A program made the translations under genes and the position numbers. The notes below the pieces were generated by a model. The model saw only the letters and a program-made list of their open reading frames with translations, ran no database searches and was not told the DNA's origin. Source: an uncultured bacterium (GTDB lineage: Bacteria; Babelota; Babeliae; Babelales; Vermiphilaceae). From it: a DNA stretch of 64,000 nt. The stretch's first letter is position 1, and each line of letters begins with the position of its first letter. Positions 30,264 to 47,723 of the stretch are shown one piece after another. The stretch is from contig OY970172.1 of the NCBI GenBank assembly GCA_963707655.1, positions 832,001 to 896,000 of the forward strand. The letters run 5' to 3'.

Positions 30264-31085
30264 ATGAAACAGGCATTTAAATTCTTTATCCCATTATTGT
30301 GCTGTATAGCAATTGCATCGCGCGCAGAAGCAACATACAAAAACTTTGTTATCCTCATCGCATCGTATAATAACGAACAATTCGCAAAGCACAATATTAT
30401 TTCTGCCTTGCAAAACTATCCCGAGAGCCATTACCGTATCATTTTTATTGATGATTGCTCGCAAGATAATACATTGGCTATCGCAATTAATATCCTTGAA
30501 CAACACCAAAGGCAACACCTTGTAACCATCTTTCACAATACTGAGCGCAAAGGGGCTTTATACAATCATTATTACGGCATTCATAATTACATTAAAGATG
30601 AAGAAATTGTTGTTATTCTAGACGGTGATGACCAGTTGGCTCATGCAAACGTCCTAACTTTTCTCAATGATGTCTATTCGAAAAACGATATTTGGCTCAC
30701 GTATGGGCAATTTCAACATATTGTAACTGGCCAAGTTGGCTTCAATTGCCCTATGCCCCATGAAGTGGTAGGAAGCAATAACTTTAGACGGTGGCGGCAC
30801 ATCCCCTCACACTTAAGAACTTTTTATGCAAAGCTGTACAAAAATATCAGAATAGAAGACCTGACCTTGAACGGGGATTTTTTTGAAATGTGCGCCGACA
30901 TGGCAACCATGATTCCCATGATAGAGCAGGCGCGCGATCACTTTAGATTTATTCCGCAAATATTGTATCTCTATAACGACAACAACCCAATCAGTGATCA
31001 CTTCAAAAGTAAGACGTTACAAAGAGAAATAGATCTTTATGTGCGCTCAAGGCAGCCCTATAAACCGCTTGAAAAACTTTTTTAA
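30264..31085 (+). CDS. GT2 glycosyltransferase with signal peptide
   Basis: IASYN, IDDCSQD, LDGDD, SHLRTF; paralog of 44594-45415. Confidence 0.88.
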   Translation: MKQAFKFFIPLLCCIAIASRAEATYKNFVILIASYNNEQFAKHNIISALQNYPESHYRIIFIDDCSQDNTLAIAINILEQHQRQHLVTIFHNTERKGALYNHYYGIHNYIKDEEIVVILDGDDQLAHANVLTFLNDVYSKNDIWLTYGQFQHIVTGQVGFNCPMPHEVVGSNNFRRWRHIPSHLRTFYAKLYKNIRIEDLTLNGDFFEMCADMATMIPMIEQARDHFRFIPQILYLYNDNNPISDHFKSKTLQREIDLYVRSRQPYKPLEKLF

Positions 31086-31231
31086 TATTCGTTCTGGACA
31101 CGCGCCGCTTTGAAAGTTGACTGCTCCCACGGTCAACGCCCTGGACCAAAAACTACTCTTGCTGTTTGTTAACGCGATGAGATACAATAAATAATCATAG
31201 TGATGTAAGTTTTAAGGGGGGAGAAGTCACC

Positions 31232-31741
31232 GTGAAGATATCTATTTTAGTCATCTTTTCTATCGCGTTTTTTCCATTCATAAAAGCTGAGCCTGAACCC
31301 GCTTATTCAGCACGCATTGATAACCCGCATCCACATGAATTCAATATTCACATTAACCACGCGATCATGCAAGACATGTCGCTCAATAATAACAACAAAA
31401 ACAATGCTGCCGGAACAAACTGCATGTGCAGCGAATTATATGGCGCCGCATTGCATGAATGCATGAACTCTCTATCAAGCGAGGATCTGAAAAAAAATTT
31501 CTTAGAGCTTAATCCTCGCTGCGTGCGAAATTATTTAAGAACTGTGGGATACTCGGGAACAGAAGATATTCTTGCCTGCTTCAGTGAGGAGGAGTGGCAA
31601 GATTGGCACAGCAAACTTCCTTCAGAAATACAAAAATGTATAGGAAAAACCAAAGAAGAGGCGAGCAAAAAAGCTCTTGCTAAAATGCACGACGAAGTCA
31701 CTGCACTCATAAGGAAAGAAATGAAACGATGGACTATATAA
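31232..31741 (+). CDS. hypothetical exported protein
   Basis: Signal peptide; GGGGAG RBS. Confidence 0.65.
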   Translation: MKISILVIFSIAFFPFIKAEPEPAYSARIDNPHPHEFNIHINHAIMQDMSLNNNNKNNAAGTNCMCSELYGAALHECMNSLSSEDLKKNFLELNPRCVRNYLRTVGYSGTEDILACFSEEEWQDWHSKLPSEIQKCIGKTKEEASKKALAKMHDEVTALIRKEMKRWTI

Positions 31742-32457
31742 AAAAAATTTTTGTTTTCTTAATCGTCACGACCATAACAGCAAACAGCGAACTAAAGATT
31801 AATATATATCCCGCACTGCATTACACGCAAAATATAGATGTAAACAATACCAACCATAACAGCGCCCTCGCACAACAACCTTTACCCACCATGCAGCACA
31901 CTGCAATGCAAAGCAGTGGGGACCCTATGACAGAGCTTTTGACGCGCCGAATATCCGGCGCATGGAAAGATAACCATTTTCTGCAGCTCCTCTATTCAAA
32001 AAAATCTTTAATTTCTGCTGCCATAGGAGCCATAAGCGGCTATGCTTCACTCCTTGCCTATCTGATTACTCGCTCACGCGCGATAAAAAATAGCGATCGC
32101 TGGGATAGCTGGAAACAAGAAGTTCCTGTGGCAGCACTACATGAACTACCAATAACGCAAGTGGCCAACGTACTTCGCGATGCATTACACAAAAAATATA
32201 ACAAGGCTGAGCCACGCGAGCTTGTATCGGCACTCGCCGATATTGAAGCAGAAAAAAACCAACTGGAGCGCCTTATTTTTTACTCTTCTTTGATAAAAAC
32301 ATGCAAACTGAGCTTATTGTTTTGGTACCGAGACTCAGTGGAGGAGCTCGCAAAAAACAAACTCAAGCGACTGGAATTCATCAGAGAGTTTCTTATAACC
32401 CATATGGTAAAGATTGTTGAAGGACAACCGTCTGACGCACTGGCCAATGCTGCGTAA
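31729..32457 (+). CDS. hypothetical exported/membrane protein
   Basis: Signal peptide plus an internal hydrophobic helix; overlaps neighbours. Confidence 0.65.
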   Translation: MDYIKKIFVFLIVTTITANSELKINIYPALHYTQNIDVNNTNHNSALAQQPLPTMQHTAMQSSGDPMTELLTRRISGAWKDNHFLQLLYSKKSLISAAIGAISGYASLLAYLITRSRAIKNSDRWDSWKQEVPVAALHELPITQVANVLRDALHKKYNKAEPRELVSALADIEAEKNQLERLIFYSSLIKTCKLSLLFWYRDSVEELAKNKLKRLEFIREFLITHMVKIVEGQPSDALANAA

Positions 32458-45415: not shown

Positions 45416-45422
45416 TTTCTTG

Positions 45423-46313
45423 CTATCGGCTTATAAAACTAAATTCATATTCCATGTGCGCCCCTTTATTATCAATTTTATGTAAGGGAGCACTATCAAT
45501 TTTTAATCCTTTTTCAAACAACTCAAGCATCTCTTTTGTGGATAAACCCTGCATATTACGATTATTCACGTATTCCTGTTGTGTCAAATTTAGGGGTACA
45601 TTAACTATCTTACTGTGCCTGAAACAAAGGCCTTTTTTGTTACCAACCAATTTTGCTTGCCGAGCCCATGCTCCCTCCAAAGAATTTGGCGCTCGATAGG
45701 GTAAAGAGCAAATGGTGTCTATAATATCTGATTTTTTGTACAAGGTCATATCAACGGTGTTTGGGTATCCCCAATCATACTTGCCGTCTCCCAAGGTCCA
45801 GCACACAATTTCATGGGCAATGGGAGTGAGTGGCGGTAATGGTTGCTTGCAGTTAAGCATATAGCATTCGGTTAAATTAAGACCGAGACGAAAGTAAAAA
45901 CCATAAGCTCCCGCATATTGCAACACTTCAATGCAGCGCTGCAGATCGATTGCATCAGTAACTATAATGTCATCCACCGCAAAAAGTATGTAATTATTCT
46001 TTGACGAGAGCAAAAAAGACTCTGTGATAGGCTTAAAATCTTTTTGCGGCTCATTCCCCTGCCGACAAAAAACAACCTTATCAAAATCTTCTTTAACAGA
46101 TTGATACGATTGCTCAAAGCGCTCATCGCTTGCGCGATAAACAACACAGATATTTTCAGCTCCCGTTACGTACTGCTCAACCGATTCCAGCAATGCATAA
46201 AGCTGCATGGGGCGGTCATACGAAAAAATAATTAAATCAGTTTTATCATCGGTTTTATTAGTGGCAAACGAACAGAATAATAAAAAAAGAACAGTGATTT
46301 TTCTTACAAACAT
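45423..46313 (-). CDS. putative GT-A glycosyltransferase with signal peptide
   Basis: IFSYDRPMQL..LLES, FAVDD, WGYP, PNSLEG; operon context. Confidence 0.6.
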   Translation of the reverse strand: MFVRKITVLFLLFCSFATNKTDDKTDLIIFSYDRPMQLYALLESVEQYVTGAENICVVYRASDERFEQSYQSVKEDFDKVVFCRQGNEPQKDFKPITESFLLSSKNNYILFAVDDIIVTDAIDLQRCIEVLQYAGAYGFYFRLGLNLTECYMLNCKQPLPPLTPIAHEIVCWTLGDGKYDWGYPNTVDMTLYKKSDIIDTICSLPYRAPNSLEGAWARQAKLVGNKKGLCFRHSKIVNVPLNLTQQEYVNNRNMQGLSTKEMLELFEKGLKIDSAPLHKIDNKGAHMEYEFSFISR

Positions 46314-46343
46314 AATACCAATCTCTCTTTTAGAAAAACATTA

Positions 46344-47723
46344 TTACGCGCCGGGCTGCCCCAATTTATAGCATACAATAGGTTTTTTACGTGTCGCTTG
46401 CGTAAGGCGAACAACATCTCTCATATCAATAATTATTGGGTCAACCATATACTCACTAACTGTTGCATAATCAAATGCTTTAAATTCTTGCCACTCGGTG
46501 AGTATGACCAGTGCATCAGCCTGCTCAATCGCTTGCTCTTTTGTTTGGCAATATTCAATGGAAGGTAGAACTTTTTTCATATTGCTCATCGCAATAGGAT
46601 CGTATGCTTTAACATGAGCACCCATGCTTAAAAGCGAGGTGATAATGTAAATGGCAGGGGCGCTGCGCACGTCGTCAGTATTTGCTTTAAAGGCTAACCC
46701 CCAAATTGCTATGGTTTTGTTTTTAAGATCATTACCACAAAAGTCGCAAACCTTGCGAACAACATACATCTTTTGATGGTAATTTGCTTCTACAGATGCC
46801 GTAATAATGCGCAAGGGCGACCCCAACTCTTCTCCTTTTTTCATCAAGGCGAGCGCGTCTTTGGGAAAACATGATCCGCCAAATCCTGGACCGGGAACAA
46901 GAAACTTATTGCCTATTCGTTTGTCGAGCCCCATACCCTTGGCCACATCAGTAATATTGGCTCCTGATTTATCGCACAGTTGCGCTATCTCATTAATGTA
47001 AGCAACTTTGACCGCGAGAAAAGCGTTTGAAGCGTACTTTATAGTTTCCGCCGATGCAAGGTCCGTGTGCAAGACTGGAATGTTTTTTACTAACAATGGA
47101 GCATACAGAGAATGGAGAACGTGCGCATCATCTTCTGATTCTGCTCCTATAATTATGCGATCGGGATTGAAAAAATCATGTACGGCGAATCCTTCTCGCA
47201 AGAATTCAGGATTAGAGATCACCCGCACGTCAAAAGCGCTCTCGTGTTCTTGTATTATAGACATGATTCGAGCGCTCATGCCAATAGGTAATGTACTTTT
47301 GATACAGACCGTTTTGTTACCGTTAAGATTCATGCCAATGGTATTTGCAACAGCCTCAACTGCTGAAATATCAGCAGACCCATTAGGACCAGCGGGTGTC
47401 CCCACTGCTATGAAAACAACGTCTGATTGTTGAATTGCTCGACCAATATCATCAGTAAAAAATAATCTTGCAGCTTCTGTATTTTTTTGAACCAGTTCAG
47501 GCAATTCAGGCTCAAAGATAGGCATTTCTCCACGCTGCAGCTGTGCAATCTTTGCCGCATCAATATCAGCGCAATAGACAGTATGGCCAAGATCAGCCAG
47601 ACAAGCGCCCAAAACAAGACCAACGTAACCCGTTCCTATAACCGCAACATGCTGCTTGTCATCTGCGTGCAGAAAAAACGAGCAAACAAGCAATAGGGCT
47701 ACGATTAATATTCTCTTCTTCAT
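46344..47723 (-). CDS. ugd: UDP-glucose 6-dehydrogenase with N-terminal signal peptide
   Basis: GTGYVG, AVGTP, KST, NPEFLREG, KYASN, GFGGSCFPKD, GLAFKANTDD. Confidence 0.93.
   Translation of the reverse strand: MKKRILIVALLLVCSFFLHADDKQHVAVIGTGYVGLVLGACLADLGHTVYCADIDAAKIAQLQRGEMPIFEPELPELVQKNTEAARLFFTDDIGRAIQQSDVVFIAVGTPAGPNGSADISAVEAVANTIGMNLNGNKTVCIKSTLPIGMSARIMSIIQEHESAFDVRVISNPEFLREGFAVHDFFNPDRIIIGAESEDDAHVLHSLYAPLLVKNIPVLHTDLASAETIKYASNAFLAVKVAYINEIAQLCDKSGANITDVAKGMGLDKRIGNKFLVPGPGFGGSCFPKDALALMKKGEELGSPLRIITASVEANYHQKMYVVRKVCDFCGNDLKNKTIAIWGLAFKANTDDVRSAPAIYIITSLLSMGAHVKAYDPIAMSNMKKVLPSIEYCQTKEQAIEQADALVILTEWQEFKAFDYATVSEYMVDPIIIDMRDVVRLTQATRKKPIVCYKLGQPGA

Follow-up and report, generated by a model that had tools for sequence, protein, structure and literature searches.

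Sec-type leaders on the enzymes of a glycan-biosynthesis cluster in a host-dependent Dependentiae bacterium suggest glycan synthesis outside the cytoplasm

Introduction

The usual assumption is that in bacteria sugar-nucleotide enzymes and Leloir glycosyltransferases work in the cytoplasm, and that glycosylation beyond the inner membrane proceeds via lipid-linked donors. The window studied here is the whole stretch of 64,000 nucleotides at positions 832,001 to 896,000 of contig OY970172.1 (assembly GCA_963707655.1), from an uncultured bacterium. At 30264–47723 of the window lie 18 consecutive open reading frames (ORFs) of glycan biosynthesis whose products begin with a leader of the kind found on Sec-exported proteins. 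Where such enzymes would work, and on whose substrates, is the question that this locus raises. An earlier note on this DNA had proposed that an intracellular bacterium exports an entire fucosylated and methylated glycan pathway and runs it on host precursors. The reading that we prefer, with a probability of about 0.6, is that the enzymes are exported through Sec and that, outside the cytoplasm, they turn host GDP-mannose into a fucosylated, methylated glycan.

The source genome is a single contig of 1,091,075 bp with 41.3% G+C and 88.6% marker completeness. Every named homologue of the 279-residue protein of the cluster carries the label Candidatus Babeliaceae, Babeliales or Dependentiae, and the placement of the organism relies on these names. 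Its 16S rRNA, compared with a plasmid collection, gave only generic rRNA matches at about 80% identity, which did not help to place it. Three TLC nucleotide transporters, typical of energy parasites, are encoded in the genome, and Pfam identifies many leader-bearing ankyrin, WD40, C2H2 zinc-finger and GNAT proteins. Such features mark the organism as one that parasitises eukaryotic cells. We regard the block as the glycan-biosynthesis cluster of a Babeliales-type member of the Dependentiae that depends on a host. The Pfam scan of the leader-positive proteome took in 150 of 355 proteins; statements on absent families come from whole-genome family scans. As for sequencing runs, the genome accounts for small shares of the DNA in soil metagenomes, and no RNA run is listed.

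Results

Leaders ahead of the catalytic domains

By eye, a basic and then hydrophobic N-terminus is clear in 17 of the 18 cluster ORFs and weak in one (32414–32935). A crude leader heuristic is positive for 15 of the 18, against 356 of 959 ORFs genome-wide. The binomial tail for this excess is 8e-5, and the cluster is the top-scoring run of 18 ORFs in the genome. The flanking genes DAO (28003), RF-1-domain (29107), PCC (29550), dcd (47794) and MoxR (48436) have no leader; dcd and MoxR are cytoplasmic controls that the earlier note had suggested. The leaders which that note quoted for nine enzymes (GT2 at 30264, NodZ-like at 35077, dehydrogenase at 37260, methyltransferase at 38425, GT6 at 41661, Gmd at 42406, Fcl at 43578, GT2 at 44594 and Ugd at 46344) are present, and the nine further ORFs bear leaders too, weakly so at 32414–32935. 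Pfam and NCBIfam name 11 of the 18 ORFs, and the other seven have no family match, including Pfam at E<=5; four of these seven are without an assignment of any kind. The ORFs are as follows.

30264..31085, plus strand: GT2 glycosyltransferase (GT2a) with leader MKQAFKFFIPLLCCIAIASRA; Pfam Glycos_transf_2, 7.4e-13, profile from residue 30
31232..31741, plus strand: hypothetical protein hyp1 with leader; no Pfam match at E<=5
31729..32457, plus strand: hypothetical protein hyp2 with leader and a second hydrophobic segment; no family match
32414..32935, plus strand: hypothetical protein hyp3 with a weak leader that requires an internal Met start; heuristic negative
33061..33885, plus strand: methyltransferase-like protein with leader; Methyltransf_24/FtsJ-like, Pfam 2e-4, below cut-off
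33931..35091, plus strand: 386-residue protein with leader after an 11-residue basic N-region (KKLKPIFFIFFFCLFIQSQA); no family match
35077..36099, minus strand: NodZ/FUT8-like (GT23) fucosyltransferase 1 with leader; Pfam NodZ, 1.9e-11
36228..37229, plus strand: unk353, probable GT-B glycosyltransferase with leader from Met 36228 (the ORF opens at 36168)
37260..38444, plus strand: nucleotide-sugar dehydrogenase, 394 residues, with leader; Pfam UDPG_MGDP_dh_N and central domains
38425..39345, minus strand: S-adenosylmethionine (SAM)-dependent methyltransferase (Methyltransf_11/25) with leader; Pfam 4.9e-19
39545..40564, plus strand: NodZ/FUT8-like fucosyltransferase 2 with leader; Pfam NodZ, 1.2e-9
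40809..41648, minus strand: unk279, fucosyltransferase-superfamily enzyme with an HVRR motif, own leader weak; AlphaFold2 and Foldseek
41661..42440, minus strand: GT6 alpha-1,3-Gal/GalNAc transferase (ABO-type) with leader from Met 42404; Pfam Glyco_transf_6, 1.9e-47
42406..43572, minus strand: Gmd, GDP-mannose 4,6-dehydratase, with an N-terminal extension of about 31 residues that holds the leader; TIGR01472
43578..44579, minus strand: Fcl, GDP-L-fucose synthase, with leader; NCBIfam NF047922
44594..45415, minus strand: GT2 glycosyltransferase (GT2b) with leader; Pfam Glycos_transf_2, 5.5e-18; homologues leader-bearing
45423..46313, minus strand: 296-residue protein with leader; no Pfam match
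46344..47723, minus strand: Ugd, UDP-glucose 6-dehydrogenase, with leader; Pfam N, central and C domains

In Gmd, Fcl, Ugd, GT6, GT2 and the NodZ-like proteins the catalytic domain is intact and the leader has been added in front of it. The family profiles start at residue 32–35 in Gmd, 24–27 in Fcl, 25 in Ugd, 29–30 in both GT2 enzymes and 37–38 in GT6. The closest solved relative of the cluster GT6 is BoGT6a of Bacteroides ovatus (4ayj, 3.3e-48). It has no leader, and its residue 2 aligns with residue 38 of the cluster enzyme.

The apolar run in the glycan-enzyme leaders has a median of 14 residues (10th–90th percentile 11–18, n=109), against 24 (18–41, n=211) in internal transmembrane segments of the same proteome. 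The leaders are therefore too short for a membrane span, and their length fits a signal peptide, not a stable anchor. The N-region has a net charge of +1 to +3 in all 15 heuristic-positive cluster leaders. Its charge is higher than that of the C-flank in 11 of the 15 and equal to it in 3, the order being reversed in Gmd only. Similar leaders are found in the same genome on BamA, an S41 protease, AmiC and both secretins, GspD included.

By eye, the leaders mostly end in candidate cleavage sites such as SRA/E, SQA/H, LHA/D, LTA/Q and SFA/T (the slash marks the site). A test of the residue before the first polar residue as a sign of cleavage, a crude method, was not significant. The lipobox of signal peptidase II has the motif L-[AS]-[GA]-C; by eye none of the 18 leaders has one, no Cys being found with G, A or S at -1 and L at -3. 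An RR pair is present in none of the cluster leaders, in agreement with the earlier note, and TatC of the twin-arginine translocation (Tat) system was not found in the genome.

Export-type leaders are also seen on other proteins of this genome. Four tandem paralogous C2H2 zinc-finger proteins at L050:12252-17591 (G000:C1, about 358.6-364.0 kb; G000 is the source genome) have near-identical leaders, MKK[TI]L[FL]VIL...CWA, so that eukaryote-type DNA- or RNA-binding domains carry an export-type tag. A thioredoxin-reductase–thioredoxin fusion (L049:16225-17682), a ferritin (L035:6724-7380) and a pyridoxal-phosphate-dependent enzyme (L043:8634-9842), all on G000:C1, are further cofactor-dependent, normally cytoplasmic proteins with leaders.

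Distribution of the leaders among relatives

The phylum set comprised 261 Dependentiae genomes, 145 of which have Gmd. Seventy Gmd loci were examined, the 30 best matches and 40 picked from other families of the phylum, which make a non-random sample. The control set consisted of the 80 closest Gmd loci from other phyla, with 81 Gmd genes. In the phylum sample a leader is present in 42 of 69 Gmd proteins (2 of them doubtful) and absent from 27. Fcl has a leader in 23 of 44 cases and none in 21. Of the 81 Gmd genes in the control set 3 were flagged, and in each of these a canonical start lies near the domain. The leader sequences have diverged across the phylum, with the basic-hydrophobic-polar build kept.

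On a maximum-likelihood tree of Gmd, built with the leader columns excluded, the leader state requires 6 changes, at least 3 of them by well-supported branches. Shuffled states require 21.8 changes on average, and none of 500 shuffles was as low as 6. In the window's own clade 19 of 20 Gmd proteins are leader-bearing. The pattern shows clustering and long retention of the leaders; related genomes are not independent, so it gives no probability. The conservation in related genomes that the earlier note had asked about is thus real, and the leaders are conserved and lineage-specific.

Gmd and Fcl tend to agree in their leader state. Among the adjacent pairs, 21 have a leader on both, 15 on neither, 4 are discordant and 2 ambiguous. 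The discordant loci are L009, L093, L125 and L022, and three of the four genomes have two Gmd copies; several genomes hold one leader-bearing and one leaderless Gmd. A Gmd-Fcl fusion (L020, G200) and a GT2-Gmd fusion (L119, G178) each have a single leader at the very N-terminus, and another Gmd-Fcl fusion (L096, G157) is leaderless.

The other cluster proteins recur with leaders as well. The leader is clear in 33 of 36 aligned relatives of unk279. Five single-contig relatives were compared over stretches of 60 kb round Gmd. There Ugd, GT2, the 296-, 353- and 386-residue proteins, GT6 and the methyltransferase-like protein have recurring homologues, all of them leader-bearing, two only by eye. 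Homologues of GT2a bear leaders in the loci of 15 relatives. The cluster of G253 contains a leader-bearing homologue of the methyltransferase-like protein at 33061 (63% identical) and one of the 386-residue protein. A homologue of hyp3 near Gmd in G241, 30% identical, has a clear leader.

The leaders could also be an annotation error, with the true starts downstream and the hydrophobic stretches untranslated. Several genes do have an internal Met just ahead of the catalytic domain, for instance Met21 in Fcl, as do many relatives, and Gmd initiates with GTG. However, no ATG lies between that GTG and the Rossmann motif of Gmd. In the minus-strand operon, from Ugd to the 279-residue gene, the intergenic gaps with the leaders taken as coding are 30, 7, 14, 5, 1 and 12 nt, and there is no space for untranslated spacers. 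Mis-called starts are therefore very unlikely. The recurrence of in-frame leaders with diverged sequence on Gmd, Fcl and unk279 in the relatives, and on at most 3 and perhaps none of the 81 Gmd genes of other phyla, argues the same way, and we consider an artefact scarcely credible. The downstream starts that the earlier note had named as its possible undoing are very improbable at this locus.

Supply of GDP-mannose and routes of export

ManC (TIGR01479) was not found in the source genome or in G231 of the same genus; it was found, as a short ManC, in 142 of the 261 phylum genomes. The only NTP_transferase gene of the genome is a leaderless GalU-like gene, and leaderless PGM/PMM and GlmM are present elsewhere. 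The genome search that the earlier note had recommended thus had a divided outcome, with ManC missing and GalU, PGM/PMM and GlmM present. Since the genome has no ManC, GDP-mannose is not home-made. For this genome there are good grounds to hold that the host has to supply it, and the leaderless GalU, PGM/PMM and GlmM mean that such dependence is imposed on the GDP-mannose branch only. The GDP-fucose pathway here has Gmd and Fcl, and a ManC source was not found in the same cell.

A general rule that leaderless pathways keep ManC and leader-bearing ones lack it was considered and rejected. ManC is common among the relatives, often leader-bearing and sometimes mismatched, and the rule applies just to the source genome and to G231 of the same genus.

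Outside the cluster, its genes have no other paralogues in the genome than two leader-bearing GT2 genes at G000:C1:100707-103772, with a C-terminal domain like the 296-residue protein. The search for leaderless copies that the earlier note had proposed gave none in the genome for any cluster enzyme.

Pfam and NCBIfam find neither Wzx/Wzy nor a priming transferase in the cluster, and likewise neither ManB/ManC nor GalU, as that note had stated. In the whole-genome family scans LpxC, Wzy_C, Bac_transf, PMT_2 (GT-C) and TPT were not found; the zero matches to Wzy_C cover the WaaL/Wzy ligase or polymerase. Polysacc_synt gives one match at 23.7 bits, below cut-off. Glycos_transf_4 is represented by one gene, which is MraY-like, and ABC2_membrane by three weak matches more than 200 kb from the cluster. 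With no Bac_transf, no Wzy_C and no flippase above cut-off, the classical lipid-carrier (undecaprenyl-phosphate) route is missing.

SecY, SecD and two signal peptidases I (S26) are encoded in the genome, as are an ATPase of the type II secretion system (T2SS), GspC, two secretins and the oxidative-folding components DsbD and VKOR. The secretins near the cluster are the only two of the genome. By Pfam, the context is as follows.

49569..57981, plus strand: GspC (49569-50663), GspD secretin (50669-53107), PilM-like protein (53104-54762) and second secretin (55315-57981)

A second T2SSE-type ATPase gene at G000:C1:764698-765845 is broken by in-frame stops (TGA, TAG and TAA) and may be a pseudogene. 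It was reported that Babeliales lack most lipopolysaccharide (LPS) genes, and that two gspD copies and T2SS parts occur in all TM6 genomes examined (Yeoh et al., PMC4776705). In Chromulinavorax, signal peptides were predicted by Phobius on 44% of the coding sequences and on 78% of the ankyrin proteins, and outer-membrane vesicles were reported (PMC6561590).

Functions of the cluster enzymes

Gmd scores 574.8 bits with TIGR01472 (cut-off 415) over residues 32-370. Fcl reaches 471.9 bits with NF047922, slightly under the cut-off of 500, over residues 24-327 and profile positions 2-304 of 308. Ugd scores 465 bits with NCBIfam NDP-sugDHase and 497 bits with TuaD. The dehydrogenase at 37260 scores 239 bits with NDP-sugDHase (cut-off 190), and Pfam gives no match to the C-terminal UDP-binding domain.

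The GT6 enzyme covers positions 74-312 of the 313 in the Pfam profile PF03414. Its NCBIfam Gltr_6 score is 200.7 bits, under the cut-off of 250, and in the PDB the human ABO transferases follow BoGT6a at about 1e-41. The presence of GT6 beside fucosyltransferase-type enzymes suggests an H/A/B-like epitope, judged from the usual acceptors of GT6.

The two NodZ-like proteins (35077 and 39545) are paralogues with 62% identity. The AlphaFold2 model of unk279, with a predicted local distance difference test (pLDDT) score of 90, has a fucosyltransferase-type GT-B fold. Foldseek matches it to NodZ (3six, E 5e-5), FUT8 (6vld, template-modelling score 0.50), POFUT1 and AtFUT1; a protein atlas gives a lead to GT11, and a PDB sequence search gave no match. 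The atlas clusters nearest to unk353 are viral and named 'glycosyltransferase family protein' (0.99), with PF13524 on 12% of one, which serves as a lead only.

The 296-residue protein is probably a second transferase domain, because homologous sequence is fused to the C-terminus of GT2 in two paralogues of the same genome and in relatives (L010, L015, G000:C1:102216-103772).

The G+C content falls to 0.37-0.38 at 36001-42000 of the window, compared with 0.41 for the genome. This part holds the second dehydrogenase, methyltransferase, second NodZ-like and 279-residue fucosyltransferase-like genes. Outside the window, the longest ORF of the genome has 22,176 nt (about 7,390 residues) and may encode a giant surface or effector protein.

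Discussion

Export is favoured over an anchored or artefactual leader by the short hydrophobic runs, the positive N-regions and the likeness of the leaders to those of proteins that must be exported. It is also favoured because neither a route for a cytoplasmic product nor one to cytoplasmic GDP-mannose is apparent. We hold the export of the cluster enzymes to be probable. That nucleotide-sugar chemistry and glycosyl transfer both take place outside the cytoplasm, in a host-continuous periplasm or a host compartment with host GDP-mannose, UDP-sugars, NAD(P)H and SAM, we rate at even odds. Translocation, cleavage, compartment, use of host nucleotide sugars, glycan structure and acceptor are what we infer from the sequences.

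Under the preferred reading, every cluster product would be made with a Sec-type N-terminal leader. Since the genome has no Tat system, the enzymes would be threaded unfolded through SecYEG, and NAD(P) and other cofactors would be loaded after export. They may work in a periplasm permeable to host metabolites, at the cell surface, or after release by the T2SS or in vesicles. Host GDP-mannose would be converted to GDP-fucose and host UDP-sugars to uronic acids. The putative toolkit comprises the GDP-fucose module, two nucleotide-sugar dehydrogenases, three fucosyltransferase-type enzymes and an ABO-type GT6, together with two GT2 enzymes and their partner domain, two methyltransferases and an enzyme that is probably of the GT-B type. 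The product would be a fucosylated, methylated, possibly H/A/B-blood-group-like glycan on the parasite surface or on host molecules.

In enterobacterial colanic-acid and O-antigen clusters, a cytoplasmic module gmd-fcl-gmm-manC makes GDP-L-fucose. The present cluster has the same Gmd and Fcl enzymes, adjacent and beside glycosyltransferases. It differs in the leaders on every enzyme and in lacking ManC, Gmm, Wzx/Wzy, a priming transferase and lipid A; the undecaprenyl-phosphate route is thus closed to the product.

Golgi enzymes have a signal-anchor of about 20 residues and a stem, and depend on nucleotide-sugar transporters. The Golgi type II glycosyltransferases (ABO GT6, FUT8 and POFUT1) resemble the cluster enzymes in family or fold, in the N-terminal hydrophobic segment before the catalytic domain and, on the preferred reading, in non-cytosolic catalysis with nucleotide-sugar donors. 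However, the hydrophobic run of the present leaders is shorter and there is almost no stem, and the tag extends to Gmd, Fcl and Ugd, whose place in eukaryotes is the cytosol.

The closest experimental precedent is Chlamydia trachomatis, in which secretion brings glycogen enzymes to the lumen of the inclusion and host UDP-glucose is used (Gehre et al. 2016, eLife, PMC4829429). There, an obligate intracellular bacterium exports normally cytoplasmic enzymes of sugar-polymer synthesis and feeds them with a host nucleotide sugar. As reported there, the Chlamydia system relies on signals for type 3 secretion and on a host transporter that it has co-opted, both shown experimentally, whereas the present case has a Sec-type leader read from sequence, and includes the nucleotide-sugar-modifying Gmd, Fcl and Ugd and methyltransferases.

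The Sec-tagged secretome of the Dependentiae has already been published (PMC6561590, PMC4776705). The share of tagged coding sequences reported for Chromulinavorax is similar to the 356 of 959 found here, ankyrin proteins are tagged in both, and the core T2SS with two gspD and the lack of LPS in Babeliales are shared. The main texts of these two papers do not report that an entire glycan pathway is tagged, and they are without 'glycosyl' or 'nucleotide sugar'; 'fucose' is absent from the main text of PMC6561590. A literature search, with subscription journals and supplements outside its scope, found no paper on leader-bearing glycosyltransferases of Dependentiae or on a secreted Gmd with a signal peptide. 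For Dependentiae and glycosyltransferase, no paper was on the subject by its title or the start of its abstract, and none among the matches listed linked Dependentiae or TM6 with fucose.

Several observations count against export, and some of them suit an alternative in which the leaders are uncleaved N-terminal anchors. These would keep the enzymes at the inner membrane, on its cytoplasmic side, as a membrane-bound assembly line, with sugar nucleotides imported into the cytoplasm or made there. ManC of the relatives is mixed in its leader state, with a leader in 17 of 30 loci and none in 13. Six genomes of the window's family are consistent: G238, G223, G221, G222 and G219 have ManC-Fcl-Gmd operons with leaders throughout, and in G225 both ManC and Gmd are leader-bearing, Fcl being outside the stretch fetched. 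In G206, G204, G211 and G217, by contrast, a leader-bearing ManC stands beside leaderless Gmd and Fcl, and in G104 a leaderless ManC stands beside leader-bearing Gmd and Fcl (the mismatched loci are among L129-L135, L018, L022 and L013). Export would divide such a pathway across the inner membrane, which is difficult to account for, whereas mixed states do no harm to enzymes that all face the cytoplasm. The simple model of a whole pathway outside does not explain these states. The window's genome also retains GalU and PGM/PMM in the cytoplasm, and an exported Ugd would have no access to what they make. Of the proposal in the earlier note, the leaders and the missing ManC stand; the mixed ManC of relatives and the cell's own GalU and PGM/PMM tell against a pathway exported entire and fed by the host throughout.

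Other points on the same side concern the proteins themselves. A crude [AVS]-x-A motif test found the motif in 29 of 109 leaders and 34 of 186 transmembrane controls (p = 0.11), so that it is not enriched, and the C-flank of Gmd is more basic than its N-region. Cysteines are not significantly depleted in leader-bearing Gmd (2.0 versus 2.5 in leaderless forms, p = 0.07) and are more numerous in leader-bearing Fcl (6.2 versus 4.6, p = 0.001); cysteine depletion, which might be selected for in an oxidising periplasm, was for that reason rejected as a mark of periplasmic residence. Gmd, Fcl and Ugd would need NAD(P) after Sec export, for which a supply outside the cytoplasm is putative, and in the cytoplasm the cofactors are freely available. 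The GspC-GspD genes lie 2-10 kb downstream of the cluster, but none of 5 complete relatives has such genes less than 30 kb away from Gmd; a functional link with the cluster was rejected, and the adjacency looks incidental. Nevertheless, anchors facing the cytoplasm are improbable in our judgement. The apolar runs are too short for the bilayer, the basic N-regions predict an N-in, C-out orientation in 11 of the 15 leaders, and same-looking leaders are present on BamA, GspD and AmiC, which must be exported. Cytoplasmic enzymes would also lack GDP-mannose, with neither ManC nor a TPT-type nucleotide-sugar carrier, and would have one MraY-like gene as the sole lipid-carrier priming enzyme, no flippase above cut-off and no ligase.

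If the enzymes are exported, they may stay in the periplasm or at the surface and build the parasite's own coat, or act in the host. The former is a form of the preferred reading in which the outer membrane lets in GDP-mannose, UDP-sugars, NAD(P)H and SAM of the host, like the ATP imported by TLC transporters. The three TLC transporters imply that nucleotides cross this membrane, and with no LPS or WaaL route another surface-glycan route is plausible. The leaders are plain Sec-type ones, and hyp2 and the nearby GspC-type anchors indicate that membrane-anchored periplasmic proteins are usual here. Yet DsbD and VKOR are present while leader-bearing Fcl has 5-8 cysteines, a periplasm-built glycan has no known way to the outer face, and no acceptor was identified. 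We put this form forward tentatively, as a possibility well short of even odds. In the other form the enzymes would be released by the T2SS or vesicles and act on host glycoconjugates or nucleotide-sugar pools, by remodelling, mimicry or depletion, with no bacterial coat. The same leader is found on ankyrin, WD40, C2H2 zinc-finger and GNAT proteins, for which a eukaryotic cell is the only sensible place of action; the GT6, FUT8/NodZ-like and POFUT-like folds stand for activities typical of eukaryotes; and Cys-rich leader forms suit a reducing destination. T2SS parts are present, and vesicles are on record for Chromulinavorax (PMC6561590). On the other hand, nothing indicates that the cluster proteins cross the outer membrane, the relatives do not share the proximity to T2SS genes, and 18 co-clustered enzymes, methyltransferases included, resemble a pathway to one polymer, not independent effectors. 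Host-side effectors therefore seem to us doubtful, although the Cys-rich exported forms and the tagged eukaryote-type proteins lean slightly towards a host-facing, reducing destination.

If synthesis of the glycan outside the cytoplasm from host GDP-mannose is true, it would run counter to the textbook view that bacteria need lipid-linked donors for glycosylation beyond the inner membrane. The pathway would be outsourced to where the host keeps the substrates, with which the lack of an own GDP-mannose source fits. The precedent of Chlamydia glycogen would then take in complex glycans as well as another phylum, one that is both very large and little known. Such synthesis would also explain how Babeliales without LPS might coat themselves or mimic host glycans, with a fucosylated, blood-group-like coat or a host modification drawn wholly from host supplies.

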